This document shows positions 3,030 to 56,013 of a stretch of 64,000 nt of DNA, in pieces. The DNA lies in the NCBI GenBank assembly GCA_963699755.1, contig CAVOVB010000007.1, positions 192,001 to 256,000 of the forward strand. The letters run 5' to 3'. The notes under the pieces are model-generated. The model saw only the letters and a list, made by a program, of their open reading frames with translations, made no database searches and had not been told where the DNA came from. The translations under genes were made by a program, and so were the position numbers. Source of the DNA: an uncultured delta proteobacterium (GTDB taxonomy: Bacteria; Myxococcota_A; Polyangia; Polyangiales; Houyiibacteriaceae). Every line of letters starts with the position of its first letter. Within the stretch, counting starts at the first letter, position 1.

Positions 3030-4706
3030 TCACCAGGACGGCCGCCAAGTCAGATTCGAGCCGAGGACCAAGACGCTCACGTCTTCGCCGAAGATTCCGT
3101 CGACGCGAACCCCGAGATCGAGGTCGTGCCCGAGTGCGAAATACAAGAGGCCGCCGGCCGAATGCTGCAGCCAACTCGTGGGGGACGCGACATACTGGTT
3201 GATCGACACCCGGTAGTAGGCGGAAATCTCACCGACACGCCGAATGTCTACCCCTGCTCCAAGACGCGCGGCGTAGTCCGATACGAACGAGCGCGCGTAG
3301 GCCGCGACCGAAAGGTCCGCCCAAGCGATATCTGCGATACGCAAGATGCGGGCCTGCAGGTAGCCAGAGAGTTGCTCGAATTCATCGGCAGTCTGGCTGT
3401 GCACGATGTTTGCGCCAGCATGGAGGGCGAAACGTGAAAACATGAAGCTTGCATCCAAGCCACCGAAATATCGCTGGTCATTGCTGTTGAGGCAGACCAA
3501 CTCGTCTCCGCCGCCAGCGGCCGGGTCCGGAACGGTGTTGCACAAGTAACCCAACGGCAGATACGAAGTGAGCCAGAGCGAACGTTCCGGTAACCGCATG
3601 TCGAAGCGGCCGGCGAGCTGAAAGAGGCCGACACGAATCGATGCGTCGAAGCCTGCTGCGCTCACTTCGAAGCGCGGCGCCCGCCAAGGATTGACCTCGT
3701 CGTGCATCGAGAGCTCGAAGTGCCCTCCGATCTGGCCATTTCCGGGAAACACGTCGAACTCCAGATTGAGGCGTCGCTCGTCGATTTCGCCCATGAACGT
3801 CGAAGCGTGTGCGGACAGGCCCACGAAAGGCTGGGCATCGAGCGATTCGTTTTGGTATGCGAGCTCCACCCCAAATCGCGTCGTATCCAGGGTCGGCAGA
3901 TAGTCGAGCGGGTTTGGCACCGTGCCGCCAAAGGCGCCGATCGTGAAGCCCTTCCAAGAAGGGGAGCGCACACGAAGCCCATCGAGCTGCCCGACACCGA
4001 CCGCAACGAAAGGCAGCCTGCCCAGCCCAAGCTGAGGGCTGGTCGACGTGCCGTAGCCGAATTGCAGCTCCCGGACCGCGAGCACTGGCCGGGAGGAGCT
4101 GCCCGGGCGATTTCCGATGTTGCCTCCGAACCAGGACCGCACGGCAATGTCTACGTCGAAGAACACAGGCTGCTCGAAAGGCTCGGCGTGGAGCCTTGCG
4201 CGTAGCGATGCACGGCCGAAGGACTCCCCGTCGCGCAACGCAAGAGTCCCACCTACGTCTGTCGAAAGGGCGAGATCGATTCGCTCCCCATCGGACCAGG
4301 TACCCAGAGGCACGTACTCCGGCGTCTGCCGCGTCGCGGGACGCACCGGCTCTGGCCATTGGCTCTCGTACGCGGTTAGAGGCTTGGGTTTGGTCAGTGA
4401 TGAGCTAACGGTCCGTTTGACCTTGGCCTCTGCCCGGCCGGTCATCCCGACTCGCAGCTCGCGTCCTTTCATCTCGATGACCGCGTGCTTGCCTGTCACC
4501 CCAACGACTCGGTAGCGACGATCACGAAGAACCACGACGGACCCTACTCCGACCCCCGCTGCTTCGCCTGGCGTCAGATAGGCGCGTCCGCCCGCAATGT
4601 CGACGACTTTGACGCTGACTCGGCTTCCAGATGCGGCGTTGGCCGCAGTCGTCGCGGCGAAGAGGGCCGTGCACGCAAGCAGCGCTGCGAACCAAGTCGG
4701 CCTCAT
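3030..4706 (-). CDS. putative outer-membrane beta-barrel (porin-like) protein of the multiheme cluster
   Basis: Signal peptide MRPTWFAALLACTALFAATTAANA; many amphipathic beta-strands; terminal aromatic residue (LTWRPSW); ATGA-coupled to decaheme gene. Confidence 0.7.
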   Translation of the reverse strand: MRPTWFAALLACTALFAATTAANAASGSRVSVKVVDIAGGRAYLTPGEAAGVGVGSVVVLRDRRYRVVGVTGKHAVIEMKGRELRVGMTGRAEAKVKRTVSSSLTKPKPLTAYESQWPEPVRPATRQTPEYVPLGTWSDGERIDLALSTDVGGTLALRDGESFGRASLRARLHAEPFEQPVFFDVDIAVRSWFGGNIGNRPGSSSRPVLAVRELQFGYGTSTSPQLGLGRLPFVAVGVGQLDGLRVRSPSWKGFTIGAFGGTVPNPLDYLPTLDTTRFGVELAYQNESLDAQPFVGLSAHASTFMGEIDERRLNLEFDVFPGNGQIGGHFELSMHDEVNPWRAPRFEVSAAGFDASIRVGLFQLAGRFDMRLPERSLWLTSYLPLGYLCNTVPDPAAGGGDELVCLNSNDQRYFGGLDASFMFSRFALHAGANIVHSQTADEFEQLSGYLQARILRIADIAWADLSVAAYARSFVSDYAARLGAGVDIRRVGEISAYYRVSINQYVASPTSWLQHSAGGLLYFALGHDLDLGVRVDGIFGEDVSVLVLGSNLTWRPSW

Positions 4707-5632
4707 CGTGCGGTCCCTCCTGGGTGGCACCCCAAGCACGAGGCACCACTGCTCGAAACGCGCCGTCCATGCTGCTGCTGGAGCTTGACGGCGTTGTGCG
4801 CATGGCAACCCGTGCAGCGGACCAGCCGAGGCGTTCGCGCTGAGGTGTGGCAGCTATTGCACGGCGCCCCGCGGTGCGGGCCGTGCGAAACCGGAAAATA
4901 TCGGTCGTGATCGGGAGGGACGACCATGCCTCCGATGCCTGCTCTGACGGAGCTCGTCGACGCGGCGGTGAGTGACGTGGGGTCGATGAACGCAGGGCTC
5001 CAGGCGCTCGCAAGATGGCACTGAGAGCAATCTCGCGAAAACGGGTCGGAGGTGGCGGTTCCGCGGTGACTCGGATGGACGCTTGGATCGAGGTACTCGG
5101 CAGCGTGACAGGAGAAGCAGTCGCTTTGAACCGTCGTCCACTGCCGTTCTCCGTTTCGCAGATGGCATTCGGTGCAGTCGGCCAGCGCGTGCATGCCCGT
5201 CAAGGGGAAGCGTGTTCGGCGATGGATCTCGAACGGCTCCATGTCGTTCCAGCGTCTCGAGGAGTGGCAGCTGTCGCATCGACCGCTCAGGCGTTTCTGG
5301 TGTGGATTTTCGTGGCACGCTCCGCACTCCCTCGTAACTCGCCGCTCGCCGCTGTGACACTGATTGCAGGCAGCCGGCTCATGTCTCCCTGTGAGCGGGA
5401 AACCCGTGCGGGAATGGTCGAAGCCTTCGCCTGATTTGCCCCCCATCATCTTCCAGCTCGCCGGCGTGTGGCAGTTGCCGCAATCAAGCCCCTCGGTGAT
5501 CGAGTTGTGGCTGGCAGCCCTGGCTTGGGCCGCGTTCCGTTCGGGGTCTTTGGCGATCGCGAGCCCGGCAATGCCGGCGAGAGCGACGATGCCCAAAACG
5601 ATGAATAGCCTAATCAACAGGGCGCGGTTCAT
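4703..5632 (-). CDS. decaheme cytochrome c
   Basis: 10 CxxCH motifs counted; N-terminal hydrophobic signal; FPLTGxH repeats. Confidence 0.92.
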   Translation of the reverse strand: MNRALLIRLFIVLGIVALAGIAGLAIAKDPERNAAQARAASHNSITEGLDCGNCHTPASWKMMGGKSGEGFDHSRTGFPLTGRHEPAACNQCHSGERRVTRECGACHENPHQKRLSGRCDSCHSSRRWNDMEPFEIHRRTRFPLTGMHALADCTECHLRNGERQWTTVQSDCFSCHAAEYLDPSVHPSHRGTATSDPFSRDCSQCHLASAWSPAFIDPTSLTAASTSSVRAGIGGMVVPPDHDRYFPVSHGPHRGAPCNSCHTSARTPRLVRCTGCHAHNAVKLQQQHGRRVSSSGASCLGCHPGGTAR

Positions 5633-7266
5633 CGCTGCCCCTTTCTGCGCGCGTGCGGGTTGCCATGACAATCGGCGCACTCGCGATACCCGAGCCTGTA
5701 TCTCACCACTTGCACCCCGCTTCGTAGGCGCTCCTTTTGGTGACACCCGACGCACTTGAGCCCGGCGTGAGCGCCTTCGAGCGGATAGTCGGCGAGCTCC
5801 TCGTGGGCGAACGCCTCGATCTCGAAAGCATCCGTTATGTGGCACACCTCACACTCGCGCTTGGGCTCGCTGAGCCGAAACTGTCCGGCGTGAGTGTCCT
5901 GGTGACAACCGGCACAGTCGCGCGGCGCTCCACGGTAGGTCGCCCCCCGTCCGCTGAGCCGGTCCGCTTTCGAGGGGCTATGGCAGCTGTCACAGGCCGC
6001 TTCGGAGTGCGCGCCGGTCAGCGGCCAGGTGCTGTGGTCGATTTTGGGTGAGTCCCAGCCGCGCTCGGAGTGGCAATGCGCGCAGCCCCCATCGCTCATT
6101 TCGCTGGCGAACTGGTCGCCGTGGGGGTTGTCGTGGCAATCGATACAACGCTGCGATTTCAGCTCGAGCCGGTAGTGAGGTCGTTTCCCTTGGTGACAGC
6201 CCGTGCAAGGGACCGACTGATGCTTGCCATCGAGAGGGAACTTGGTCCGGCTGTGCTGCTCGACACCAAACGAAGTCGGCCAGAACCCGTGTTCGTCGTG
6301 GCAGGACTTGCAGTCGGCGCTTCCAAGGCTCCCGCGGTGCACATCTTTGTGGCAGTCCCCGCATTGATCGAACTCGAGACGGCGATATCGGCGCTCCATC
6401 GGCAGCTTGGGCGAATGGCAGCTAGTGCACGCGACGTCTTGATGCCGGCCTTCGAGGGGAAACGCAGTGAGAGGATGCGCGCGAAGCCCGATCCTGGTGG
6501 GCAGCCGCGTCCAGCGAATGCTGGCATGGCAGTTCTCGCATCGATCTCCGAATTTCGCTTCGTGAACCTGCGCATGGCAGGCTACGCACGCCGCGCCCGC
6601 GCTTGGGGCCGAGGTGTTGCCTTTGTCGTGACAGGCCTCGCACTTCGTTTTCGCATGCCCGCCGGCGAGGCTGAGACCAGGATGGTTGCTCCTGACGTTG
6701 GTGACCTGGCTCCAGTCGGTTTCGTTGTGGCACGACGTGCATTCAGCCCCCGCAAATCTGCCCTCGTGGGGATCCTCGTGGCAGGACACACAGTCGGTCT
6801 TCAGCCCGAGAAACGTCGCTTGACCGCGACGGTTGCGGCGATCGTGACAGTCCTCACATCGAACCGAGGCATGAGCCCCCTTGAGCGGCCAGCCCGATAG
6901 GCGATGATCGAAACGCGTCTGCCCACCGCCTGGCCACCGAACGAGCTTCGCATTCCTTCCGAGATGCTCGACGTGGCACTGGCCGCAGTCTTGTCCGCGA
7001 TACTCTCGTCCGTGGAGACCTGCCTGCTGGCGTATCCGTGCCCCCAAGTCGTCGTGGCAAGCCAGACAGGCATCGGTGTCGAGCCGCTGGCCGGTCGAGT
7101 GGCATTCACTGCAATTCGCATCGCCCTCGAGCTCGGCGTGTGCGCTCGTGAGCTTTCCGGGCGATAGGAACTGAGCGCCGGTCGGCCGAGGCACCAGCAC
7201 GCCAGCAATCGCAGCCGCGATCATCCACGCGCCCAAAAGCACCATAGCGGTCGTCCGCCCGCTCAT
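5629..7266 (-). CDS. 20-heme cytochrome c
   Basis: 20 CxxCH motifs counted; signal peptide; repeated triheme unit (W/F)PLxGxH-CxxCH-CxxCH-DxH-CxxCH. Confidence 0.92.
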   Translation of the reverse strand: MSGRTTAMVLLGAWMIAAAIAGVLVPRPTGAQFLSPGKLTSAHAELEGDANCSECHSTGQRLDTDACLACHDDLGARIRQQAGLHGREYRGQDCGQCHVEHLGRNAKLVRWPGGGQTRFDHRLSGWPLKGAHASVRCEDCHDRRNRRGQATFLGLKTDCVSCHEDPHEGRFAGAECTSCHNETDWSQVTNVRSNHPGLSLAGGHAKTKCEACHDKGNTSAPSAGAACVACHAQVHEAKFGDRCENCHASIRWTRLPTRIGLRAHPLTAFPLEGRHQDVACTSCHSPKLPMERRYRRLEFDQCGDCHKDVHRGSLGSADCKSCHDEHGFWPTSFGVEQHSRTKFPLDGKHQSVPCTGCHQGKRPHYRLELKSQRCIDCHDNPHGDQFASEMSDGGCAHCHSERGWDSPKIDHSTWPLTGAHSEAACDSCHSPSKADRLSGRGATYRGAPRDCAGCHQDTHAGQFRLSEPKRECEVCHITDAFEIEAFAHEELADYPLEGAHAGLKCVGCHQKERLRSGVQVVRYRLGYRECADCHGNPHARRKGQR

Positions 7267-8150
7267 TGGGAAAAGATCCATCGATAGCCGTAGATCCAAG
7301 CCACGGCGATGTGTACGGGAACGAGCAAAACGAGGATCAGCGCGAGCAACCGGTGGAAGCCTCGCCAGGACTGAAGCAGCGAGGAGGCTCCGACCGCGAC
7401 AACCTCGCGGGTTGCGTACTTGCGGACCACGCGCTTCGCCTTTCGAAAGCGTCTTCGTTCTTTGCGTCCGAGGACGTCAGCAACTGGGGCATCCTCGATC
7501 ACGAAGCTCACGATGAAGCCTCTTGAACGCGCATCCATCACCCACCTCGGAATGGCGGCGAGCTTGGCGAGCAGCCACTGATGCGCATCGACTTGGGTGA
7601 CCTTGTGGATCGCGAGCGCATGGTACACCCGGGCGCTGCACCCCGGAGCGAGCTCATCCAACGAGGCGAGCGCCTGCTCGAGCCGGGCTCGATCGGGACG
7701 CGGCGTCAATGCATAGAGATAGCGGCCTGCGATCCCGGTCGCCACCACGACGCCTAGACTGACCGCTGTGACCAGCGCGATCGGTGTCCGAAACTGGAAT
7801 GCGGAATGAAAGAGGATGAGGAGTGACCCGATCAGTCCGGTGAAGACGTGTAGGTTGAGCCAGGTGGCCATCGAGCCGAGCGACCAGCGCGCGAGCCTTC
7901 GCCGCGCGAGGTAGAGGAGGTTGGCGAGGATCAAGATCGTTCCGACGATGCCGTACCCGTGTCCGACCAGGCCGCCGGGCCGAAGCGCGTCGTAGTCGCC
8001 GTGCTCCACCCTCGCCTCGAGGTCGGACAGATAGAAGTCTTGACCGAGATCCCAGAGCACGTAGGCAAGAACGGAAATCGCCAACAACACCAGCAAGACG
8101 GCGCTTCGATCCGCGCGGCGCTTCTGCGCAGCTTTGGTTTTCCTCCCCAC
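7263..8150 (-). CDS. integral membrane protein, ferric-reductase/cytochrome b-like
   Basis: Several TM segments; two helices each with H-X13-H (HVFTGLIGSLLILFH, HRLLALILVLLVPVH), consistent with two b-type hemes. Confidence 0.75.
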   Translation of the reverse strand: MGRKTKAAQKRRADRSAVLLVLLAISVLAYVLWDLGQDFYLSDLEARVEHGDYDALRPGGLVGHGYGIVGTILILANLLYLARRRLARWSLGSMATWLNLHVFTGLIGSLLILFHSAFQFRTPIALVTAVSLGVVVATGIAGRYLYALTPRPDRARLEQALASLDELAPGCSARVYHALAIHKVTQVDAHQWLLAKLAAIPRWVMDARSRGFIVSFVIEDAPVADVLGRKERRRFRKAKRVVRKYATREVVAVGASSLLQSWRGFHRLLALILVLLVPVHIAVAWIYGYRWIFSQ

Positions 8151-8245
8151 AGCCCCCTACAGACGACGGGTCCCCACCCGTCCTGCATGTTAGAATCCCA
8201 GCGTAACAAAGGGGAGCCATTCGCACAAAAGGGCGAGCCGAAAAC

Positions 8246-9565
8246 ATGACCACTTGGATTGCACTTGGCTTCTTCGCTGCAGTTGCCCTCGGCTTGAACC
8301 TTTTTTGGAGACGAAACGAGCAGGTGCGCACCGAGACAGGTCGCCAAAAACTCGAGGAGCTGCGAGCCATGGGGGACCTCGTCCCCGCGAGCATTCATCC
8401 TGAGATCGATCCCATCCGCTGCATCGGTTCAGGGGCATGTGTCTATGCCTGCCCGGAGAAGAGCGTCCTCGCGGTGGTCAATGGCAGGGGCGTGCTGACC
8501 AACCCGCTCGGCTGCATCGGACACGGCGCCTGCGCCTCGGCCTGCCCAGTTCAGGCGATCTCGTTGGTGTTTGGCACTGAGAAGCGCGGGCTCGAGCTGC
8601 CCCAGCTGGATCCCGACTTTCAGACCAACCAGCCCGGCATCTACATCGTCGGCGAGCTCGGCGGAATGGGACTCATTCGTAACGCGGTCTCGCAGGGACG
8701 GCAGGCGGCTGACCACATCGTCGCGGGTCATCGCAGAGGAGCAGGCGAATCGCTCGATGCACTGATCGTCGGCGCCGGCCCGGCCGGGACGAGCGCGACG
8801 CTGCGCTTGATGGAAGCCGGGTTGCGGGTGCTCTTGCTCGAACGGGAAGCCTTTGGCGGCACGATTACACACTACCCGCGGGCGAAGGTCGTCATGACCG
8901 GATCGCTCGACTTCCCGATGTACGGGCGTGTGTCCAAGACAAAGATGAGCAAGGAGCAGCTCATGACGCTCTGGGAGGACATCCAGGAGAAGACCGGGCT
9001 GCAGGTCGCTGTGGGAGAGCTCGTCGAGAAGATCGAGCGCGGACCGGGACCGAACGACAGCTGGTTGGTCTCCTCCACCGGCGGTGTGTTCGGAGCGGCA
9101 AACGTCCTCTTGGCCCTCGGCCGTCGCGGCTCTCCGCGTAAGCTCGGGGTGCCCGGCGAGGAACGTTCGAAGGTCGCCTATCGAGTGATCGAGCCCGAGG
9201 TCTTTCGAGAGCAGCACGTATTGGTGGTCGGCGGCGGCAATGCGGCGGTCGAGTCGGCATTTGCCCTACTCGATGGCGGAAACTGCGCGTCGGTGACGAT
9301 CAGCTATCGCAAGAATGCTTTTGCGCGCTGCCGTGAGCCGAACCGCAAGCGCATCGAAGCGGAGGTCCAGGCCGGCCGGCTTACCGCGTTGATGGGCACC
9401 GAGGTCGAGGAGATCTTCGACGATCGAGTCACCCTCCGCAACGGGTCGGGACTGCCGATCTCGATCCAGAACGACGCGGTCGTGGTCCAGGTCGGTGGAA
9501 CGGCGCCGACCGACTTGCTTCAGGGCGTCGGGATCGAGATCGTCACCAAGTACGGAGAAGCCTAG
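8246..9565 (+). CDS. membrane-anchored ferredoxin-domain / NAD(P)-FAD pyridine nucleotide-disulfide-family oxidoreductase
   Basis: N-terminal TM helix; CIGSGACVYACP and CIGHGACASACP; GAGPAG and GGGNAA Rossmann motifs; GRRGSPRKLGVPGE. Confidence 0.88.
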   Translation: MTTWIALGFFAAVALGLNLFWRRNEQVRTETGRQKLEELRAMGDLVPASIHPEIDPIRCIGSGACVYACPEKSVLAVVNGRGVLTNPLGCIGHGACASACPVQAISLVFGTEKRGLELPQLDPDFQTNQPGIYIVGELGGMGLIRNAVSQGRQAADHIVAGHRRGAGESLDALIVGAGPAGTSATLRLMEAGLRVLLLEREAFGGTITHYPRAKVVMTGSLDFPMYGRVSKTKMSKEQLMTLWEDIQEKTGLQVAVGELVEKIERGPGPNDSWLVSSTGGVFGAANVLLALGRRGSPRKLGVPGEERSKVAYRVIEPEVFREQHVLVVGGGNAAVESAFALLDGGNCASVTISYRKNAFARCREPNRKRIEAEVQAGRLTALMGTEVEEIFDDRVTLRNGSGLPISIQNDAVVVQVGGTAPTDLLQGVGIEIVTKYGEA

Positions 9566-10254
9566 TCGCGATTACGGCCGTCGGCATGGCACTCCAAGCA
9601 GAAATTGGGAGATGCCTCTCCACTCGGGTAGCGGCCGACCTCGTTGTGTTTTGGATCCATCCGGGCGCGCGTGTGCTCTCCGTCGTGGCAACCAACGCAA
9701 TCGCTGTTCTCGCCGCCCACCGGCGATCCGAGCGCAGGGTTGTGGCAGGACACGCAGTCGTTCCGGTACGGCGAATGCGCCCCGTTCTGAATGGGAAACG
9801 CGTTCTCGGGATGCGTACCGCCAACCGCTGGCGCCCACGCTTCGGTCGTATGGCAGTTCTCGCAGGTCGTGGGGAAGTCTGAGTGTCCCGGATACGGGCT
9901 GCTGTCATAGTCGTCTTGATGACATCCGACGCACAGGGTGGGGGTGCCCTGGAAGACCGCTGGATTTCCGACGTGGCATGACGCACAGTCGACGTCGGCC
10001 GCCGCATGCGCGCCATTGAGCGGCCACGGATGCATGAACAACCGTGCCGGCTTCCAAGCGTCGCTGCTGTGGCAGGTGCCGCAGGTATCCGGAAAGCCTT
10101 GATGTGGGGGGTTGAGGGCGTGCTGCACATCCTCGGCGTGACAGACGATGCAATCCGCACCGCGCACCTCGACGCGCGCGTGGTCCTGCGTGCCGCCAGT
10201 GCACGCATGGTTGAGCAAGAGCACGCCCAGCACCCCGATCCTGAGAAATCGCAT
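9562..10254 (-). CDS. octaheme cytochrome c, probable lipoprotein
   Basis: 8 CxxCH motifs; signal MRFLRIGVLGVLLLNHA-C (imperfect lipobox). Confidence 0.9.
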   Translation of the reverse strand: MRFLRIGVLGVLLLNHACTGGTQDHARVEVRGADCIVCHAEDVQHALNPPHQGFPDTCGTCHSSDAWKPARLFMHPWPLNGAHAAADVDCASCHVGNPAVFQGTPTLCVGCHQDDYDSSPYPGHSDFPTTCENCHTTEAWAPAVGGTHPENAFPIQNGAHSPYRNDCVSCHNPALGSPVGGENSDCVGCHDGEHTRARMDPKHNEVGRYPSGEASPNFCLECHADGRNRD

Positions 10255-10482
10255 CACCCGTCGGCCACCAATCCGCTCACCCAAAGTTAGCACCTCTGGC
10301 TTAGACTCGGTAGCTGACCGACGAACAGGGGAAGCCCTGTAACACGCTGAAAAAACAGGCTTTGAGGGGTACGGAGCGGGATCTTGTCGACCGACGCAGC
10401 CGAGTGCTTGAAACTGGGCCTCCGATGTGCCTCTGTTCTCTCACCAATCGAGGGCGAACCTTGATTTGAGGGCCCCTTACAT

Positions 10483-10500
10483 TTAACCTGGCGGGGTTAA
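10483..10500. promoter_or_regulatory. palindromic operator candidate TTAACC-N6-GGTTAA
   Basis: Perfect 6-bp inverted repeat in the AT-richer divergent intergenic region, 16 bp before the 29-heme start. Confidence 0.4.
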
Positions 10501-10516
10501 TCACAATGGCATTAGA

Positions 10517-12724
10517 ATGTCACCCATGAGGCTTAGTTCTCGTGGACCGCTTGGGCGCCTCGCGGCTCTCGGGCTAGTGGCCACCTTGTTGATCGGCGTG
10601 GGATGCAGTGGGGCTGCGAGTCCGTCTCACGAACCGGGGAGGATCGTTCAAGCCGAATGCATCACGTGCCATGAAGCAGACCGCAAGGCGGCGATCAATC
10701 CACCGCACGCTTCCCTCCCGAGCACATGCCAGGACTGCCACACGGAACACCAATGGGACCCGGCTGTGTCCACCACCATCCACACGCCGCTTCCGACATC
10801 TTGCGTAACGTGTCACGAAAACCAGCCCCGGCCGCAAACGCTCTTCCATACGCAGGCCGTCGAGACCGAGTGCGTCAACTGCCACCGAAACTATCCGGAT
10901 TGGACGCAGGCCAACTTCCTCCACATGCCCGCGCCTCGCGCCTGCGCAGATTGCCACGCGGATCAGAGGCCCAACACGCCCACGCACCAAACCTCGCAAG
11001 GCCAGGGCGACTGTGCGTCGTGCCACATCATCAACGACTGGGCGATCACCGACCCGGCGGCGCTTCACACCCCGCTGCCAGCGTCTTGCGTGACATGTCA
11101 TGAAAACGATACGCAACCGCAGACGATCTTTCACACCCAAGCCGTGGAGAGCGAGTGTGCGAGCTGTCACACGAACTATCCGGATTGGACGCAAACCGAC
11201 TTCCTTCATTCGCCCGTGCCGAGCACCTGCAACGACTGCCACAGCGACCTCAGACCCACGACGCCCACGCATCAATCGACCGCGGGCCGGGGAGACTGTG
11301 CCGGCTGCCACGTCGTGGACGACTGGGCCATCACCGACCCGGCAGCCATTCACACGCCGCTGCCGGCATCCTGCAAGACGTGTCACCAAGACACTTTGCA
11401 GCCCCAGACAATCTTCCACACCCAGGCCTTCGACACCGAGTGCCGCAGCTGTCACCGAAGCTATCCGGATTGGAAGCCGGCTGATTTCCTCCACACGCCC
11501 GTGCCCAGCACCTGCGATGCTTGCCACAGCGATCTGAGACCCACGACTCCTACGCATCAATCGGCCGCAGGCCTCGGGGACTGTGCCCGCTGCCACGTCG
11601 TGGAAGACTGGGCCGTCACCGACCCGGCCACACTCCATGCGCCGCTTCCGGCAGCGTGCATATCGTGTCACCAGAACGAACCGCGACAGTCGACGATTTT
11701 CCATACCCAGGTCCTCGAGCCCGAATGCGCCGGCTGTCACCGGAGCTATCCGGATTGGACACCGGTTGACTTTCTCCACGCGCCTGTGCCCGACACCTGC
11801 TTGGACTGTCACTCTGATCGAAGACCCGACACGGCCACGCACCAAACCGCGGCGGGCCAGGGCGACTGCGCCTCCTGCCATCTCGTCAGCGACTGGACGA
11901 CGGCCGATCCGGAGGAGCTCCATACGCCGCTTCCAGCATCTTGCATGACATGTCACCAAAACGAGCCTCGGCAACCGACGATCTTCCACACCCAGATCGC
12001 TCAACCCGAGTGCGCGCGCTGTCACCATCAATATCCAGGTTGGACGCCGGCTGACTTCTTGCACGCGCCCATTCCAAACACCTGCAATGCTTGCCACAGC
12101 AACCTGCGGCCCAATACTCCGACGCATCAATCAGCCGCAGGACTCGGGGACTGCGCCAGCTGCCACGTCGCGAACGACTGGACACTGGTCGATCCGACAG
12201 CGCTCCACACACCGCTTCCGGCCGCTTGCATTGCTTGTCACGCCGACGAACCCAGGGCGAACAATCCGCTACACACGCAAACATACGAACCCGAATGTGC
12301 GAGCTGTCACCGCTCGTATCCGGCCTGGACTCCGGCAACGTTCGCCCACACTCCGCCGCCAACGCGCTGCTATGACTGTCACGAATCGCAGCGCCCCATG
12401 ACCCCAACGCACCCCAGCACTGGCGACTGCCTGGGTTGCCACGCGACGTCAGCCTGGCTTCCGGCAACGGGTGGCGCCCATCCCGAAACTGCGTTCCGGA
12501 TCCAATCGGGAGCGCACTCGAGATATCGAAACGATTGTGCCTCCTGCCACAACGTGGCGCTCGGCTCGCCCGTGGGCGGCGAGAATACCGACTGCGTCGG
12601 TTGCCACGATGGCACCCACACGCGGTCCCGCATGGACAGCAAGCACGGGGACGTGCGCAACTATCCGAGCGGCGCCGCGCCTCCGAACTTCTGCCTAGAT
12701 TGTCATTCAGACGGCCGAAACTAG
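10517..12724 (+). CDS. 29-heme cytochrome c lipoprotein with tandem tetraheme repeats
   Basis: 29 CxxCH motifs counted; lipobox-like LLIGVG-C; six 95-aa repeats. Confidence 0.92.
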   Translation: MSPMRLSSRGPLGRLAALGLVATLLIGVGCSGAASPSHEPGRIVQAECITCHEADRKAAINPPHASLPSTCQDCHTEHQWDPAVSTTIHTPLPTSCVTCHENQPRPQTLFHTQAVETECVNCHRNYPDWTQANFLHMPAPRACADCHADQRPNTPTHQTSQGQGDCASCHIINDWAITDPAALHTPLPASCVTCHENDTQPQTIFHTQAVESECASCHTNYPDWTQTDFLHSPVPSTCNDCHSDLRPTTPTHQSTAGRGDCAGCHVVDDWAITDPAAIHTPLPASCKTCHQDTLQPQTIFHTQAFDTECRSCHRSYPDWKPADFLHTPVPSTCDACHSDLRPTTPTHQSAAGLGDCARCHVVEDWAVTDPATLHAPLPAACISCHQNEPRQSTIFHTQVLEPECAGCHRSYPDWTPVDFLHAPVPDTCLDCHSDRRPDTATHQTAAGQGDCASCHLVSDWTTADPEELHTPLPASCMTCHQNEPRQPTIFHTQIAQPECARCHHQYPGWTPADFLHAPIPNTCNACHSNLRPNTPTHQSAAGLGDCASCHVANDWTLVDPTALHTPLPAACIACHADEPRANNPLHTQTYEPECASCHRSYPAWTPATFAHTPPPTRCYDCHESQRPMTPTHPSTGDCLGCHATSAWLPATGGAHPETAFRIQSGAHSRYRNDCASCHNVALGSPVGGENTDCVGCHDGTHTRSRMDSKHGDVRNYPSGAAPPNFCLDCHSDGRN
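10781..12460 (+). repeat. intragenic tandem repeat, 285-bp period, ~6 diverged copies
   Basis: H(T/A)PLP codons recur at 10781, 11066, 11351, 11636, 11921, 12206. Confidence 0.92.
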
Positions 12725-12972: not shown

Positions 12973-14592
12973 TCAGAAGGAGTAGCGAAGCCTCGCGTAG
13001 ACGTTCGTGTTCTCTTGGAGCTGTCCGAAGAAGCTGTAGTCGTCGCGACCGAACATGAGGTTCGCGCCGATGACGATCGCCAGGGGCTCGACGATCTTGT
13101 AGGTGATGCGCGGCCGGATGTAGGTGTCGAGCTGGTCCGGCGAGAAGAAGACGAAGAGCGAGAGCTCGAGCTTGTCCATGACCAGGAGCTGGTTGAGCCG
13201 TAGCGTGATGAGGTGCCGGAACTCGTGCTGCTCGTATTGAGGCCAGAACGAGCTCGCGATCAGCTCGTCGTACTTGAGCGTGTACTCGAGGTAGTATTGC
13301 AGGCCCATTTGGAACTTCGGAAGGAGCTCACGCTCATAGCCCACCAGTCCCCGGAACTGGGAGTTCGGTATCGCGGGGCTCGTCCCCGCCCGATCCTTGA
13401 ATGAGTCGTAGAACGCACCTTCGACGTTGAAGAGGCCGCCAAAGAGCGGGGTGCGCAGGCTCGCGCCGTAGACGGCCAGGCGCGCGTAGGTGAGCCCCAA
13501 AATGGTGTTCGGATCCGCCGGGTCGGTGAGCGCAAGCGCATTGGGCTGCATCCAGTAACCCACATAGCCATAGGCCGCGAGCTCGACGGCGCCTGCCGTG
13601 CCGTAGAGGCGGCCGTGGATCGTGCCGTTTCGCAGTCGCTGCTCGGGGAAGAACGGATCGATCGGCGTGAGCGGAGACCGATCGCCGACGACCTCTGCGA
13701 CCAGGGGATTGAAGAACGAGAGACGCTGCCCGTTGATGAAGCGATCCGGCTCGAAGATCGGGGTCCAGATCAAGTCCAGTCCGACTTTGTTCATCATGAA
13801 CGTGGTCTGCACCGAATTCGAGGGCGCCTTGAGGTATTCGTCCGCGCGACCGATGAAGAAGGAGTTGAAGTCCTTCGGAAAGAGGTCGTTCAAGAACAAG
13901 AAGTCGCCCGTGCCCCAGGTGAGCACCTGACGGCCGAACCGCATGCTGAACCAGCTTCCACCACGTATGAAGATCGACGCATCTCGAATGTCGAACCAGA
14001 TCCGACGGTCGACGGCGTCCGCGAAGACATCGCCCCGAAAGCGTGCGCTCACGATCTCATGGGTGGCGTCGAGGTTCAGACGAAAGCGCGCCTCGTTTGC
14101 GACGAATTCATTGGCGCTGGCGCTGCTTGGGACGACGCGCGGCGCGATGAGGCCTTCGACGAAGCCGCCGATCTGAAAGTCCCAGGCCTTGGCGCCAGAG
14201 CCTCCTTCTCCTCCACCCTCTTCCTCTTCCCAGTCGTCGAACTCGCCCCAGTCCTCGTCGCCGCCAGAATCGTCGGCCGGCTCGACGTCGCCCGCGAGCT
14301 CCTCGGGCGGATCCGAAGCTTCTGCGGCGTTCAGCGGGCCTTCTGCCTCAGCCTCGAGCGCCTCTTCCGCTCTCGGATCAGGAGACCCCTCGGGCTCAGA
14401 CCGAGTAGATGGACCTGCGTCGGAGCCGCCCGCGCCCTCCTCTTCCTTGGGCGCGGCCATCTCTTGCCCGACTTGACCGAGGGCCCCAGAGGCGAAGACG
14501 AGGGCCGTGAACACGAGCGCAGCGATCGCCAAGCACCTGAGCGAGCCGCCACCCTCGTGGCACCGCTCGGTAGTACAGATCGCCGGTTTCAT
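12973..14592 (-). CDS. outer-membrane beta-barrel protein with acidic N-terminal extension
   Basis: Signal-like hydrophobic stretch; GRQVLTWG motif; C-terminal YARLRYSF beta-signal; start uncertain. Confidence 0.75.
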   Translation of the reverse strand: MKPAICTTERCHEGGGSLRCLAIAALVFTALVFASGALGQVGQEMAAPKEEEGAGGSDAGPSTRSEPEGSPDPRAEEALEAEAEGPLNAAEASDPPEELAGDVEPADDSGGDEDWGEFDDWEEEEGGGEGGSGAKAWDFQIGGFVEGLIAPRVVPSSASANEFVANEARFRLNLDATHEIVSARFRGDVFADAVDRRIWFDIRDASIFIRGGSWFSMRFGRQVLTWGTGDFLFLNDLFPKDFNSFFIGRADEYLKAPSNSVQTTFMMNKVGLDLIWTPIFEPDRFINGQRLSFFNPLVAEVVGDRSPLTPIDPFFPEQRLRNGTIHGRLYGTAGAVELAAYGYVGYWMQPNALALTDPADPNTILGLTYARLAVYGASLRTPLFGGLFNVEGAFYDSFKDRAGTSPAIPNSQFRGLVGYERELLPKFQMGLQYYLEYTLKYDELIASSFWPQYEQHEFRHLITLRLNQLLVMDKLELSLFVFFSPDQLDTYIRPRITYKIVEPLAIVIGANLMFGRDDYSFFGQLQENTNVYARLRYSF

Positions 14593-14626
14593 GGATTTGC
14601 TCCGTGCTCGTCTGCGCGCGCTCCGC

Positions 14627-15436
14627 TCAGCGAAGCCACTTGACGGGCGGATTTCGAAGAGAGCCCTCGACGAAGATGTCATCGGGGATCCCGAGGTCGT
14701 AGCTCACGTTGCTGACGTCGCTCAGCGTGTACCCACCCAACTCGAGATCACTGACCTTGAGCCTGGTGATGGTCGGATGCCCTTGTATGGTGTCCACCTT
14801 GGCGGTTTCGATGCGCCGGTACACCTTGCCCTGCGCGTTTACGTACTCGATCTGGCTGGGCAAGAAAGTCTTCTTGTTGATCCGTAGTGTGTAGTGCACG
14901 AACTCGACGCCCTTGCTGCTCTTGGGCGTGCTCTTCACCACATACTCCGTGTCGGTCGTTTCGATGAGCTCGTGCTTGTCCTCGTCGGGATGTCGCCCGG
15001 AGATATCTTCGTAAAAAAAGTTCGTTCCGACGAAGCTCGTGCGCTCGTCGCTAGCTGCGATTCGCTTCACGAGATCGAGACCTGGAAGGTACAGCCAGCG
15101 ATCGTCGTCCTTGTTAGCATGCTTCTTCACAAGGAACGCCGTGTTGCGAACGTCGGCGGGCTGGTCGAAGACGACTAGGTAGTTCTGGTCGCCTCCGTCC
15201 TTCAAGTCGCGCCTTAGAACCGCGAATTGCCGTCGCTGGGAGCGCCCCTTGCCGTCGACGATCTTCATCCGGATGAGTGCTCGTCCATCTTTTGCCGCGT
15301 AGTACTGGGCGTTGTTCGTGCGATTTACGATTTCACTCGCGTCCTTCAGGTCGCCTGCCTCCGCGGACATCGCGGGGGTCGAGAGAAGAATCGTGGCAGC
15401 GACCGCCGCCAACCAGGTCTTGCTGAGGTCTTTCAT
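14627..15436 (-). CDS. outer membrane lipoprotein-sorting (LolA-like) protein
   Basis: Signal peptide; PADVRNTAFL, DDRWLYLPGL, VKRIA, SFVGTNFFYED motifs. Confidence 0.85.
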   Translation of the reverse strand: MKDLSKTWLAAVAATILLSTPAMSAEAGDLKDASEIVNRTNNAQYYAAKDGRALIRMKIVDGKGRSQRRQFAVLRRDLKDGGDQNYLVVFDQPADVRNTAFLVKKHANKDDDRWLYLPGLDLVKRIAASDERTSFVGTNFFYEDISGRHPDEDKHELIETTDTEYVVKSTPKSSKGVEFVHYTLRINKKTFLPSQIEYVNAQGKVYRRIETAKVDTIQGHPTITRLKVSDLELGGYTLSDVSNVSYDLGIPDDIFVEGSLRNPPVKWLR

Positions 15437-18057
15437 GCTGTTTGCTCCTTGTTGGTCGCAAGGGACGCCGCGGCGTCGTCCTCGCTCGTTGCTACCGTCT
15501 CCGTTTTTGGGGAGAGCCGGTTTTGGATTTGCATCATGATCGAGGGCAGTAGCACCACCGTGACGACGCTCGAGACGGCCATGATGGCTGCCATCAGGAA
15601 GCCCACGGTGTTGTAGGGAACCAGCGGCGCTCCGAGCAACGGAAGGAACCCAATCGCGATGACGATCGCGTTGCGCGTGATCGCCCTACCCGGCTCCTGG
15701 AACATGAGTGACATCGTTTTGCTCCAGTCACCGGTCTCCTTTTGAATTGACCTAGCGCGCTCGAGGAAATGAATCGCGAAGTCGACCGAGAGGCCAAGCG
15801 TCAAGGACGAGAGGACGGCGACCGGCATGTCGTAGTCCTTGCCCACCAAACCGATCAGTCCGTAGGTGAAGACGATCGTAATCGTGAGTGGGACCATCGC
15901 CAGCACGCCGTACAACGCCGACCGGAACAGGATCACCATCATCAGGAACACGATGACGAACGCGCCCATCAAGCTCTCGAGCATTCCGCCGACCATTTCG
16001 TCCTGCCACACCGTGTTGAGGAACGTGAGGCCGGCCCATTGGACGCGAAGGCCCTCAGGCGGAGGGTTGCCGGCCAAGAAGGTGTCGAGGTCGGTCTTGA
16101 CCGACATCATGTCCTGATTGTCACCGCTCTTGAGCTGCACCCAGATGGCGCTTTCACGGTAGTCGGGGCTCACCAAGTGCCAGAGATCATTCGGACGGTG
16201 AGACGACTGGAACTGGAGGAGCGTCTGCGCGACGCCCTCGGTGGAGCCTGGGATCCGGTAGTCCTCGTCATCTCCACTGAGGAGCTCCCGGTAGACAGTC
16301 TTCACGACATCGGCGATCGAGCTCGTCTTGCCAACGAGGGGCAGCGCGTCCGCTTCCTTCTGGAGCCGTTCGATGTAAGCCAGGTGCTCCGGGTTCTGGA
16401 AGGTCTTGCTTGCCGTCTGCGCCTCTTCGAGCGCGGTCTGCACCGCCTGCCACCGCTCCGAGTCTTCGCCGCTGGTGTCAAAGACCAGATCGGAGGTCGC
16501 TTCGATCAAGGAGTCGGAGACGTTCGTCGCCCCTTCCTCGCTCGCTGCTTCCGCATCGGCTTTGAGAGCGTCCCAGCGAGCGCGCATGTGGCCGCTTGCA
16601 CCCTGGAGGGCTTTGTCACCTGCCGCGATGATCTCGGCGCTTGCATCGGTATCCTGCTTCATGACGAGGAAGGCGGTATAGGTGCCGGCGAGCTCTTGGT
16701 TGAGCACCCTGTCGGCCACGCGGATCTTGTGAGAAGGCTTGAACCAACGGACCGGGTTGTCGTTGATATTTATCTGCGTGATGCCGTATCCGCTGATCGC
16801 GATCGCGACGACCGTCACGACGAGAATCGGCTTGGCGAAACGAAGGCTCTTGGCGCCCACGGCTTCCACGGCGCGACCCAGCAATCCACCCTCGCTTGCG
16901 TCGCGCTTGGCCGAGAGCAGCGCCGTCAAGCGTTTCTCGGGAAGCGCAGCGATGTAGGCAGGGACGAACAAGATCGTCAAGACGAAGGCGACGGCGATGC
17001 CGAAGGCGACAAACGCACCGAAGACACGGACAGGCGGAATCGGGGTCAGCATGAGCGATAGGAAACCCGCCGCCGACGTGAGAGATGTGTACAGCATCGG
17101 CGCGAACAGGTGCCCGACGACCTCCTTGATCGCGACCTTGCGATCGCCGGTCTTCGGGTAGATATCCACGAATTCCGATAGCAGATGGACGGAGTCGACG
17201 ACCGCTATGGGCATCAGGAAGATCGGAATCATCGAGCTCATGATATGCACGGTGAAGCCACTCGCGATCAGGGCTCCCATCGTGATGGTCACTGTGGTCA
17301 TGGCGACGATCATCGGCGACAAGACCAAGGCGAAGGAACGGAAGAACCACCACATCAGCAGAAGGATCACCAGAGCAGCAAGGGGCGCGGAAACCGCCAT
17401 CTGCTTGAACATCTCGACGCCAAAGGTGTCCTCGGCTACCGGAAGGCCGGTGATGTAGAACTCATCGCTGTTGTTGCCGAAGCCGGCGATGACCGCTTCG
17501 ATCTCTTGGGAGATGCGGTGGCTCTGATCCTTGCTCTCGATCGGGACGTAGAGCGCGACACTCTTGCCATCTTCGGAGACCACGGTGCCGCGAAGCATGG
17601 GCAGCCGAAGGGCGGCCTCCTTGATCGCAAGAGCCTCCTCCGGAGTCTTGGGTGCTTCCTCCATCAACCATTCGAAGCGAATCGTCCCAGGCCCAGCCTG
17701 CTCGATGTTGTCCATGGTCGAGGGCCCAAGAACGTCCCGTGCAATGACGCCGTCGATCGACTTCAGCCGCTCGTTGAGCTCGTGAATGCGGGCAAGCGAC
17801 TCGGGGTTGAAGACCCCCTCCGGCTCGGCCTCGTTCACGACGCCCACGACGATCAGGTCGTGAAGGGCGAACTCCCCCTTGGTCTCGTTGTGAAAGACGC
17901 GCGCTGCGTCGTGCTCCGCGAGCATGTTCTCCGGATCGGTATCGACTTGGATCGAGGGAATGGCCGCACCGAGGCCGATCGTGAGCACGGCCAGGCCGAC
18001 GAAGATCAGGCGCGTGTGTTGAATTGGGAAATCGAGAATCTTTCGCTTCATGGACAT
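15433..18057 (-). CDS. RND/MMPL family transporter
   Basis: Two halves each with one TM, a large loop and ~5 TMs; IAVVDSVH and GLSVDFAIH motifs; YTSLTSAAGF. Confidence 0.9.
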   Translation of the reverse strand: MSMKRKILDFPIQHTRLIFVGLAVLTIGLGAAIPSIQVDTDPENMLAEHDAARVFHNETKGEFALHDLIVVGVVNEAEPEGVFNPESLARIHELNERLKSIDGVIARDVLGPSTMDNIEQAGPGTIRFEWLMEEAPKTPEEALAIKEAALRLPMLRGTVVSEDGKSVALYVPIESKDQSHRISQEIEAVIAGFGNNSDEFYITGLPVAEDTFGVEMFKQMAVSAPLAALVILLLMWWFFRSFALVLSPMIVAMTTVTITMGALIASGFTVHIMSSMIPIFLMPIAVVDSVHLLSEFVDIYPKTGDRKVAIKEVVGHLFAPMLYTSLTSAAGFLSLMLTPIPPVRVFGAFVAFGIAVAFVLTILFVPAYIAALPEKRLTALLSAKRDASEGGLLGRAVEAVGAKSLRFAKPILVVTVVAIAISGYGITQININDNPVRWFKPSHKIRVADRVLNQELAGTYTAFLVMKQDTDASAEIIAAGDKALQGASGHMRARWDALKADAEAASEEGATNVSDSLIEATSDLVFDTSGEDSERWQAVQTALEEAQTASKTFQNPEHLAYIERLQKEADALPLVGKTSSIADVVKTVYRELLSGDDEDYRIPGSTEGVAQTLLQFQSSHRPNDLWHLVSPDYRESAIWVQLKSGDNQDMMSVKTDLDTFLAGNPPPEGLRVQWAGLTFLNTVWQDEMVGGMLESLMGAFVIVFLMMVILFRSALYGVLAMVPLTITIVFTYGLIGLVGKDYDMPVAVLSSLTLGLSVDFAIHFLERARSIQKETGDWSKTMSLMFQEPGRAITRNAIVIAIGFLPLLGAPLVPYNTVGFLMAAIMAVSSVVTVVLLPSIMMQIQNRLSPKTETVATSEDDAAASLATNKEQTA

Positions 18058-18090
18058 CCGCTCCGTGTGAACTGGACTGAATCTAGGCCT

Positions 18091-18120
18091 CTATATATGC
18101 TCACATAATCATATAGTCAA
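18091..18120. promoter_or_regulatory. AT-rich promoter/operator between RND operon and ArsR gene
   Basis: CTATAT-N14-ATATAG inverted repeat; minus strand TTGACT-N17-TATATA sigma70-like arrangement. Confidence 0.5.
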
Positions 18121-18160
18121 GTGGTGATTTTTTCCAGGAATGGCGCTATAAAGGGAAGAG

Positions 18161-18493
18161 ATGGCAAAAACCGCGCTCACCCCACAGAATCTGGACTCGG
18201 TCGCGACGCGGTTCCGCATCCTCGGGGTCCCGCTCCGGTTGCAGATTCTGAACGAGCTAGCCGATGGGGAGCGGACGGTAACGGCCCTGGTCCAAGCCAC
18301 GGGCAGCACGCAGCCCAACGTCTCCAAGCACCTCACCACCCTGCTCGCACACCGCTTGGTCAAGCGCGAGAAGCGCGGGAACTCGGCGTACTACTCGGTT
18401 TCCGACCCGGCGGTATTCAGGCTCTGCGAAATCGTCTGCGGGAACATCGAGCGGGCGCTCGATGAAGAACGCGCGGCGTTTAGCGGCGGTTAA
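18161..18493 (+). CDS. ArsR/SmtB family transcriptional regulator
   Basis: PLRLQIL...TQPNVSKHL...LVKREKRG...YYS; C-terminal CEIVC. Confidence 0.92.
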   Translation: MAKTALTPQNLDSVATRFRILGVPLRLQILNELADGERTVTALVQATGSTQPNVSKHLTTLLAHRLVKREKRGNSAYYSVSDPAVFRLCEIVCGNIERALDEERAAFSGG

Positions 18494-40287: not shown

Positions 40288-41514
40288 TCAACTGCCGAAA
40301 TCGTCGAACATGACGTTCTCCTCAGAGACGCCGAGGTCCCTGAGCATCCCTTGAACCGCGGAAATCATCAAGGGTGGACCGCACATGTAGTATTCGCAGT
40401 CTTCCGGCGCTTTGTGCGCTCCGAGATACATGTCGTACGCGACCTGATGAATGAAACCGGTAGGGCCGTCCCAGTTGTCATCTTCTCTGGGCTCCGAAAG
40501 AGCGACCACGTACGTGAAGTTCGGGTGCTCCTCGGCCAGGCGTTGGAACTCTTCATGGTAGAAGAGATCGCGCCTGCTTCGAACGCCGAACCAGAATGAG
40601 ATTTTGCGTTTTGTCTTGAGGCGTTTGAGCTGATCGAAGATGTGGGAGCGAAGCGGGGCCATGCCGGTGCCACCACCGATAAACACCATCTCGTTGTCGG
40701 TTTCCCTCGCGAAGAACTCGCCATAGGGCCCTGCGATGGTCACCTCGTCCCCGGGCTTCAGGCTGAAAAGATAGGAAGAAACGATGCCCGGAGGCACGTC
40801 CGGGCCGGAGCCCGGCGGCGGCATGGCGATGCCGATGTTGAGCAGGATGATGCCTGTTTCCTCGGGGTAGTTGGCCATCGAGTAGGCCCGCGTCGTGTCG
40901 CTATTGCTGACTGCCTCGAACCTCCAAAGATTGTACTCGTCCCAGGTGTCGCGATACTCCGGCTCGATGTCGAAATCCGAGAACTTTGCTTGAAAGGGCG
41001 GACACTCGACCTGAATGTAGCCCCCGGCCCGGAACGGCACCTCTTCGCCGACTGGAAGGTCGAGGCAGATCTCCTTGATGAAGGTGCTGAGCCCGTGCGT
41101 GGACCGCACCTCGCAGTCCCATTTGCGAACCCCAAACACTTCTTCTGGGATCTCGACGCGGATGTCTTCGCGAACCGCGACTTGGCAGGCTAGCCGGACG
41201 TGTTGCGAGGCCTCATTGCGCGAGATCATCGACTCCTCGGTGGGAAGCAGCGGGCCTCCGCCTGCGAGCACCTTCACCCGACATTGACCGCAGGTGCCCT
41301 TGCCGCCACAGCCGGCCGGCAGGTATAGGCCGGTCTTCGCGAGGGCAATCAAGAGCTTGGACCCGGCGGAGACTTCGAAGTCTTTGTCGCCGTTCACGAG
41401 CATGTGCACGCTGCCGGTTTCGACGAGCTTGGTGCGGGCAACTAGAATCAGGGCGGACAGCGAGACGACGATCCCCGTGAAGACTGCCACAGCCAAGATG
41501 ATTTGAATCGCCAC
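40288..41514 (-). CDS. nqrF: Na+-translocating NADH:quinone reductase subunit F
   Basis: TM anchor, [42 protein letters not shown]. Confidence 0.97.
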
Positions 41515-41526
41515 CCTCGTGCCCTC

Positions 41527-55969: not shown

Positions 55970-56013
55970 GGCCAGCTTGCCGGATGGACTTCCGACCCTA
56001 AAGACAGCCGAGG

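Follow-up and report, generated by a model that had tools for sequence, protein, structure and literature searches.

The 64,000-nucleotide stretch analysed here (the window; positions 192,001 to 256,000 of contig CAVOVB010000007.1, assembly GCA_963699755.1, from an uncultured member of the Polyangiales) carries a cluster of seven genes for multiheme cytochromes and their putative partners (Table 1). An earlier note on this DNA had counted seven open reading frames (ORFs) with 67 c-type heme motifs (CxxCH), and the count stands: 10, 20, 8 and 29 motifs fall to the four cytochromes and none to the remaining three genes. The six-frame number of 67 compares with a mean of 0.6 and a maximum of 4 in 100 triplet shuffles, and residue shuffles of the four cytochromes (n = 500) gave a mean of 0.8 and a maximum of 4. 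The ATGA overlaps that the note had read at 7263-66, 5629-32 and 4703-06 are present on the minus strand, where they chain only the four genes for the membrane protein, the 20-heme protein, the 10-heme protein and the barrel. The oxidoreductase gene diverges from the membrane-protein gene over 95 bp, the 8-heme gene is convergent with the oxidoreductase gene, their stops overlapping by 4 bp, and the 29-heme gene is divergent from the 8-heme gene. The seven genes are thus a cluster of three or four transcription units, and a single seven-gene operon is ruled out by the three strand switches. The divergent region is probably a promoter region common to the membrane-protein and oxidoreductase genes, which are likewise divergent at 25 of 27 betaproteobacterial loci; a promoter scan found no consensus in it, and promoter and terminator scans were at chance level.

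Table 1. Genes and intergenic region of the multiheme cluster (window coordinates).
Feature	Position	Strand	Basis
Barrel gene	3030..4706	-	AlphaFold2 fold, iterated profile
10-heme cytochrome c gene	4703..5632	-	10 CxxCH
20-heme cytochrome c gene	5629..7266	-	20 CxxCH, homology
Inner-membrane protein gene (predicted two b hemes)	7263..8150	-	Motifs, AlphaFold2
Intergenic divergent region, 95 bp	8151..8245	.	Sequence
Membrane-anchored oxidoreductase gene	8246..9565	+	Pfam Fer4 and Pyr_redox_3, co-occurrence, fusions
8-heme lipoprotein-like cytochrome gene	9562..10293	-	8 CxxCH
29-heme lipoprotein-like cytochrome gene	10517..12724	+	Repeat split, BLAST

The four chained genes resemble PCC3, which He 2017 (PMC5566968) defined by a porin, an extracellular cytochrome, a periplasmic cytochrome and a membrane protein of ~300 amino acids (aa) with WX3HX13H and SGXXG motifs. 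As published, the periplasmic cytochrome carries 21-27 hemes and the second cytochrome 10-85 (10-35 in Gallionellaceae), and the same paper likens the membrane protein to the ferric-reductase/NOX domain.

The membrane protein of the window has 295 aa, five transmembrane (TM) helices and a large helical insertion, and its AlphaFold2 model has a pLDDT of 93.1. It carries W97-x3-H101-x13-H115 in TM3, T/S-G-x-x-G in TM4 (TGxxG here, SGxxG in most non-myxobacterial homologues) and W262-x3-H266-x13-H280 in TM5. None of the 137 aligned homologues departs from the two H-X13-H pairs picked out earlier, H101/H115 and H266/H280; the invariant columns are W97, H101, H115, G139, G142, W262, H266 and H280, and both WX3HX13H motifs occur in 64 of 70 homologous ORFs. 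Lysine and arginine counts (positive-inside) put the N-terminus, loop 2 and the insertion on the cytoplasmic side, and the invariant histidines would place one b heme near each membrane face. At E ≤ 0.01, members of the family (n = 137) gave weak matches to Pfam models of the cytochrome b type, DUF4405 (61), Ni_hydr_CYTB (20) and Ferric_reduct (10; PF01794, best E 9e-05), the window protein itself having no match to PF01794. Foldseek of the model against the PDB returned no match at E ≤ 0.001, a profile search of PDB sequences gave nothing significant, and the 50 fold matches listed included neither NOX nor MsrQ structures.

The 20-heme protein (545 aa) shares 29-34% identity over ~480-580 positions with the 18-24-heme proteins beside proteobacterial membrane proteins, and 31-38% with its counterparts in Bacteroidota, Ignavibacteria and KSB1; it corresponds to the PCC3 periplasmic cytochrome and would be the proximal part of the wire. 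The 10-heme protein (309 aa) has a signal peptide by eye and no lipobox cysteine, and corresponds to the porin-adjacent cytochrome, the distal part. At five metagenome loci (four distinct proteins) a 20/23-heme and a 10-heme part form one 33-heme chain in that order, the 10-heme protein of the window being 48-50% identical to the C-terminal part. These fusions support the order of membrane protein, 20-heme and 10-heme protein that had been proposed from the sequence, and suggest that the PCC3 "extracellular" cytochrome, also without a lipobox here, may instead continue a wire rooted in the periplasm. Residues per heme come to 30.9, 27.2, 30.4 and 25.3 in the four cytochromes (published PCC3 range 22-39). 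Much larger porin-adjacent cytochromes, with 61-67 hemes, were seen in Ca. Thiodiazotropha, Bacteroidota, Ignavibacteria and a betaproteobacterium (loci L082, L085, L069, L042 and L228).

The barrel protein (558 aa) has a signal peptide, a small N-terminal beta domain (~aa 29-93) and, in the AlphaFold2 model, 22 long strands between aa 143 and 554 (pLDDT 91.9, pTM 0.74), which confirms the beta-barrel read from the sequence; the conserved Cys389 and Cys405 lie in one loop. Its fold matches are generic (porins, ushers and TonB-dependent barrels). A complex prediction of the barrel (aa 27-558) with the 10-heme protein, hemes left out, scored 0.01, which counts neither in favour of nor against an association of the two. 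In the second round, an iterated barrel profile reached the porins of 13 proteobacterial clusters (580-860 aa) at E ≤ 1e-4, E-values after that round being inflated through self-inclusion. By this homology the barrel is a predicted PCC3-type porin, related to the proteobacterial PCC3 porins. When set against the MtrAB models, as the earlier note had proposed, the 10-heme protein did not match the MtrA/DmsE model TIGR03508 (E ≤ 0.1), and the barrel matched no family in Pfam and NCBIfam.

Gene for gene, the four-gene core is therefore a putative Polyangiales homologue of PCC3, an assignment that draws on motifs, synteny and profile homology, the Sideroxydans proteins being compared through peptides of Slit_1446 and Slit_0866. 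The locus has the ~300-aa membrane protein with five TM helices, a periplasmic cytochrome of 20 hemes (~21 as published), the variable cytochrome beside the porin and a homologous porin, as well as the low number of residues per heme and the internal repeats (95-aa repeats in the 29-heme protein). Shared with PCC3 are the four-gene core, two WX3HX13H motifs with S/T-GXXG and 25-31 aa per heme, and the porin of the Leptothrix example has 22 TM regions, as there are 22 strands here. Four peptides of Slit_1446 found their best match in a betaproteobacterial homologue (score 98, background maximum 65), three of the four in plausible order. The claim that the cluster is a distinct conduit was therefore not upheld: the core has the published signature, is homologous to proteobacterial PCC3-type clusters and occurs in many phyla. 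The locus differs from published PCC3 in its shorter porin and two accessory lipoprotein cytochromes; PCC3 is described from Proteobacteria with four genes, as quinone-linked and possibly Fe(II)-oxidising, whereas here the host is a member of the Myxococcota and a fifth gene is conserved.

That fifth gene encodes an oxidoreductase of 439 aa. A TM anchor at its N-terminus precedes a stretch of basic residues, behind which lie a two-cluster ferredoxin domain and an FAD/NADPH domain like that of thioredoxin reductase (TrxR); the Pfam domains are Fer4 and Pyr_redox_3. The nearest solved structures are Bdr/YpdA and TrxR-type ferredoxin-NADP+ reductases (PDB 7a76, 7a7b, 2zbw and 3ab1), which likewise have the FAD/NADPH fold without the CxxC disulfide but not the additional membrane anchor and ferredoxin domain; against the YpdA model the protein scored 133.7 bits (cut-off 339.9). 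The iron-sulphur ligand motifs are C59-S62-C65/C100 and C90-H93-C96/C69. This double pattern was found in 98 of 101 homologues; the second ligand of the first motif is Ser, Thr or Ala in 80 of the 98 and Cys in 18, and that of the second motif is His in 97, so that the clusters are presumably 3Fe-4S or His-ligated. The nucleotide motifs, GGG(N/D)(S/A)A and (S/V)(Y/H)R, we take to be of the NADPH type. None of the 100 sequences carrying the nucleotide motif has a CxxC within the 30 residues before it, and thioredoxin reductase is ruled out by the lack of this redox-active CxxC. At four proteobacterial-type loci (L038:11305-13407, L057:11247-13283, L062:11283-13196 and L075:11247-13361) the oxidoreductase gene overlaps a downstream gene for an exported protein of 640-700 aa, which was not seen in the window cluster.

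The core genes and the oxidoreductase are co-conserved in other genomes, as the earlier note had expected. A GTDB scan with the oxidoreductase alignment found at least 589 relatives, and the loci described here are the best 80, from Myxococcota, Bacteroidota, Ignavibacteria, KSB1, Gemmatimonadota, Zixibacteria, Poribacteria and Alpha-, Beta- and Gammaproteobacteria. The membrane protein was found at 69 of these 80 with a myxobacterial profile, and of the 11 loci without a match most are cut off by the edge of the contig. ESM Atlas searches matched unnamed clusters only. Among the 32 loci of at least 19 kb, all have a cytochrome with 17 or more hemes, 30 the membrane protein and 24 the barrel by the first-round profile, to which iteration adds proteobacterial porins; across phyla, the gene for the barrel comes after that for the distal cytochrome. 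Searching from the other side, the membrane protein occurs in 29 of 401 genomes of a betaproteobacterial order, 26 of them at E < 1e-59 (27 loci). At every one of the 27 strong loci the oxidoreductase gene shares the contig: in 25 cases it is divergent and no more than 1 kb away, and in two it lies at the porin end. Three weak matches adjoin 10-heme proteins without an oxidoreductase, and in one genome the oxidoreductase was matched alone, close to where the contig ends. In the window's own phylum (251 genomes) the membrane protein was matched in 78 and the oxidoreductase in 80, and for membrane-protein matches at E ≤ 1e-50 the partner lies within 10 kb in 49 of 54 and elsewhere in the genome in 5 (a hand count). 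A metagenome scan seeded with the membrane-protein alignment gave 27 loci of at least 6 kb, 25 of them with the oxidoreductase, once as an edge fragment. Its distribution within the genus is patchy, with 11 of 24 genomes carrying the cluster.

Gene fusions tie the two proteins more closely. Membrane-protein and oxidoreductase matches in one open frame were found at 19 loci from 18 genomes, all Myxococcota; each of the 19 is one continuous ORF (665-919 aa) in which both WX3HX13H motifs and the iron-sulphur motif are present. The membrane domain comes first in 15 and the oxidoreductase in 4, and both orders are compatible with a positive-inside topology. The barrel and cytochromes stand beside 16 of the 19, and at the other three the contig stops after either the barrel or the cytochromes. 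Since the orders are opposite, at least two fusion events must have taken place. In a FastTree tree of 100 oxidoreductase domains the fusions form three well-supported (starred) groups (13, 2 and 4 members), and the others sort largely by phylum. Together with the co-occurrence, these fusions support the idea, put forward from the window alone, that the conduit has a cytoplasmic NAD(P)H/Fe-S entry module. At five of five loci without an adjacent oxidoreductase (L238-L242), a multi-4Fe-4S domain is fused ahead of the membrane domain, next to 27-31-heme cytochromes. Fusions of the membrane domain with multi-4Fe-4S domains beside multiheme cytochromes were seen in Myxococcota at L238-L243 and L245, and those of L243 and L245 also carry two cyclic-nucleotide-binding domains, possibly representing a version regulated by cyclic nucleotides.

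The oxidoreductase family also appears to be present at the type PCC3 cluster. Sideroxydans ES-1 has two PCC3 clusters, Slit_0867-0870 and Slit_1446-1449, both down on Fe(II) compared with thiosulfate (Zhou 2022, PMC8788666). Slit_0866 is listed as a 430-aa FAD-dependent oxidoreductase in the proteome tables of Keffer 2025 (PMC12016527) and goes unmentioned in the main text. Its five published peptides are collinear on the window oxidoreductase with 29 of 49 residues identical, and with up to 42 of 49 in betaproteobacterial homologues. Among the assembly's flavoprotein-like ORFs, 22 others scored lower and none of them was collinear. Slit_0866 is thus probably the family member adjoining the type cluster. 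The four-gene definition has been kept, and the function called untested, in Hoover 2023 (PMC9900912, PMC10734462), Hoover 2025 (10.1101/2025.02.27.639646) and PMC13386937. In their available text, PMC7399161, PMC6137239, 10.1101/2022.03.26.485925, 10.64898/2026.07.10.737566 and PMC11475568 do not describe an oxidoreductase-containing system, and a peat preprint (10.64898/2026.05.27.727921) names no oxidoreductase in its four other clusters, which may overlap with the oxidoreductase family. In the literature searched, the oxidoreductase is nowhere counted as a part of PCC3, although subscription papers, figures and further supplements may differ. While the four-gene core was already published as PCC3, the new element is the oxidoreductase, which the comparisons suggest to be an overlooked fifth component.

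We therefore consider, with moderate confidence, that the locus encodes a five-component PCC3-type conduit from NADPH across the envelope to the exterior, resembling a NOX or ferric reductase to which a cytochrome wire has been added, needing no quinone and likely running outward. From the gene content, motifs, folds, homology, co-occurrence and fusions observed, we infer the cofactors, the NADPH preference, the physical contacts, the quinone independence, the direction and the acceptor of the following path. The anchored flavoprotein would oxidise NADPH at its FAD, and single electrons would travel by way of both Fe-S clusters to the b hemes of the membrane protein, first the one on the cytoplasmic side (H101/H266) and then that on the periplasmic side (H115/H280). 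From there, electrons could enter the 20-heme and 10-heme proteins, which would lie head to tail as a 30-heme wire, and leave through the 22-strand barrel to an outside acceptor. Such a conduit could rid the cell of reducing equivalents when oxygen is low, with Fe(III)/Mn(IV) minerals, humics or partner cells as acceptors, or it could reduce iron at the surface. NADP(H) has a potential of about -320 mV, and inward movement of electrons works against the membrane potential; most natural Fe(II) donors are therefore too weak to drive the inward reaction, which favours the outward direction.

Several points weigh against this interpretation. The 22-strand barrel is narrower than MtrB, which has 26 strands, and its N-terminal domain, whose position the model does not fix, may plug the lumen. 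The di-heme proteins among the structures matched by the membrane model score low (CybB Z 8.3, cytochrome b561 7.8, Dcytb 7.5 and STEAP1 6.8) and are outscored by unrelated helical bundles. The genomes are kin and the co-occurrence counts are not independent; the fusion lineages meet at an unstarred node, so that only the opposite orders force two events, and a fusion may be compatible with a quinone site. Outward flow from NADPH costs proton-motive force and conserves none. The orthologous cluster on a second contig of the assembly, C1, is broken, which implies that a close relative can do without the cluster. In ES-1, the genes next to the better expressed cluster, Slit_1446-1449, encode an HD phosphohydrolase and an aldolase, and no oxidoreductase is adjacent (PMC12016527), so that a membrane protein need not be encoded together with one. 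A quinone-active cytochrome b was proposed for PCC3 by He 2017 (PMC5566968), and in the available published texts no PCC3 component has a demonstrated activity.

It is also conceivable, though we think it rather unlikely, that the membrane protein is a quinol/quinone oxidoreductase and the flavoprotein a co-regulated partner that trades electrons with the quinone pool through the same hemes or an optional second input, with the conduit coupled to quinones and flow in either direction including Fe(II) oxidation. For MsrQ, a relative, both quinol and a flavin reductase can serve as donor. The Ni_hydr_CYTB matches in 20 of the 137 family members and the fold likeness to quinone-reactive CybB and to hydrogenase cytochrome b agree with a quinone link, as do the model of He 2017 (PMC5566968), the ES-1 cluster lacking the adjacent gene and the frequency of PCC3 in Fe(II) oxidisers. 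However, the near-obligate linkage of the oxidoreductase and its fusion in both orders are not readily explained in this way, other cytoplasmic Fe-S modules replace it by fusion to the same membrane domain, many of the lineages that carry the system are not known as Fe(II) oxidisers, and the ES-1 clusters are down on Fe(II) (PMC8788666).

An inward conduit, in which low-potential donors (Fe0, reduced minerals, cathodes or partner cells) reduce NAD(P)+ and the flavoprotein acts as a ferredoxin-NADP+ reductase, seems improbable. The nearest solved relatives do include TrxR-type ferredoxin-NADP+ reductases, and Slit_0866 protein was up late compared with Fe(II)-citrate on fresh (log2 +2.35, q 0.018) and aged magnetite (log2 +2.55, q 0.003), values that rest on four unique peptides of low score (PMC12016527). 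On the other hand, the cytochromes Slit_0868/0869 are not in the magnetite proteome file of that source, flow would be uphill in both redox and membrane potential for common donors, and the non-Cys ligands suggest clusters of higher potential than those of ordinary ferredoxins. Least probable of all is a role away from the surface, with the wire as a periplasmic electron store or feeding periplasmic reductases and the barrel as a plugged transporter or cytochrome export channel: the 22 strands, the N-terminal domain without a fixed place in the model, the TonB-dependent barrels among the widest fold matches and the missing lipobox of the 10-heme protein would suit it, but those matches span aa 142-556 only, leaving their plugs outside the alignment, and the barrel gene keeps its place behind the distal cytochrome across phyla and beside the fusions wherever the contig extends far enough.

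Beyond this locus, it may be that PCC3 in general is a widespread quinone-independent wire from NADPH to the exterior rather than a quinone-linked iron oxidase, NOX-like and with a chain of 30 to 90 hemes through the porin. Roughly one in three of the Myxococcota genomes sampled would have such a wire, as would Bacteroidota, Ignavibacteria, KSB1 and Proteobacteria, and it would run outward even where the host oxidises Fe(II). Published work names PCC3 as a candidate Fe(II) oxidase, and an NADPH flavoprotein that is conserved and at some loci fused changes both the expected electron source and the direction; if the oxidoreductase belongs to PCC3, PCC3 genes in metagenomes would be read differently. 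The range of PCC3 is also extended to sediment and soil heterotrophs, previously unlisted. The system can be tested in cultured Sideroxydans ES-1, through Slit_0866, and with single-chain fusions that can be expressed.

To our knowledge, the characterised Gram-negative systems for extracellular electron transfer draw on the quinone pool. MtrCAB, MtoAB and PioAB and the Geobacter systems OmbB-OmaB-OmcB and ExtABCD similarly combine multiheme cytochromes with an outer-membrane barrel, with a decaheme beside the porin, and are quinol-fed through CymA/ImcH/CbcL-type proteins. An MtrAB/MtoAB/PioAB orthologue is ruled out for this locus by the TIGR03508, Pfam and NCBIfam searches. NOX/ferric reductases (FRD) and MsrQ with Fre share with it four histidines in TM3 and TM5, two hemes across the membrane and, on the same chain or apart, a cytoplasmic NAD(P)H-FAD donor; here, however, electrons would be donated by a TrxR-like flavoprotein that contains a two-cluster ferredoxin and received by a multiheme wire. 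A NOX/ferric reductase proper is rejected because the partner has the TrxR-like pyridine nucleotide-disulfide fold and not the FNR-type FAD_binding/NAD_binding dehydrogenase. PCC4 has the same membrane-protein motifs, and in its subgroup II the membrane-protein gene is preceded by, or joined in one frame with, an Fe-S gene, but its cytochromes carry 4, 5 and 10 hemes, its membrane protein is reported as another family and it is without the 20-heme wire (He 2017, PMC5566968); PCC4 is ruled out by the 20 and 10 hemes of the core cytochromes here.

The two lipoprotein-like cytochromes are genus-level accessories. The likely start of the 8-heme gene is ATG 10254; the protein has 8 CxxCH, one free Cys and a lipobox-like Cys31 (numbering of the long ORF), the signal-region Cys being kept in six of six relatives shown. 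The gene is in the same place in close relatives and was not seen in L173. The 29-heme protein (735 aa) consists of six 95-aa four-heme repeats followed by a C-terminal module that is 50% identical to the 8-heme protein, and homologues at its position have 9, 11, 14, 17, 19+ or 29 hemes, or none was seen. The 8-heme and repeat lipoproteins, which vary in length, were seen in close relatives only. In one of these (L013:10001-14644), two oxidoreductase copies flank 8- and 14-heme genes, followed by a 29-heme gene.

The host is myxobacterial, as had been supposed: the closest named homologues are from Polyangiales and "Myxococcales SG8_38" (81-91% identity). Marker counts put contamination of the assembly at 9%. 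The contig that holds the window (C7) is collinear with C1:1.55-1.95 Mb over ~346 of 436 kb at some 80% DNA identity, with ~79-87% in the long blocks around the window, and gene duplication within one genome is ruled out by this collinearity. C7 is best read as coming from a co-binned sister species, which would explain the contamination and makes findings of duplicated genes in the assembly suspect. The orthologous C1 cluster (L224, ~1796300-1803600) is frameshifted and lacks three blocks (~window 4000-4150, 5990-7490 and 8000-8500). Of 16 flanking genes that were compared, 14 matched there in one long stretch or with minor breaks. The assembly as a whole has cytochrome c assembly genes, five heme-copper oxidase-family genes and a second multiheme cluster, and owing to the co-binned contigs such traits cannot safely be assigned to the window's organism. 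That second cluster (L223, C1:612995-626197) is unrelated and has seven cytochromes with 3, 13, 23, 9, 7, 8 and 10 CxxCH, one with a NapC/NirT-like region and one with Fn3-associated domains. In three estuary metatranscriptomes 6-9% of the sampled words were found, and contigs were thin over the cluster and its flanks alike, a coverage that is no sign of transcription.

Elsewhere in the window there is a complete nqrA-F set (40288-46147) and, at 49581-57402, a cbb3-like neighbourhood with FixG, a FixI-type ATPase, DsbD_2 and an unusually long heme-copper oxidase subunit (~52877-55222, 781 aa); nqrA-F, the FixG/FixI-type genes and the oxidase subunit would fit a low-oxygen lifestyle. Beside the cluster, at 12973-18493, the gene at 12973-14682 encodes a protein of no family that has a signal-like segment. 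It is accompanied by genes for a LolA-like sorting protein, an MMPL/RND transporter and, divergently, an ArsR regulator, and the group is syntenic on C1 too.

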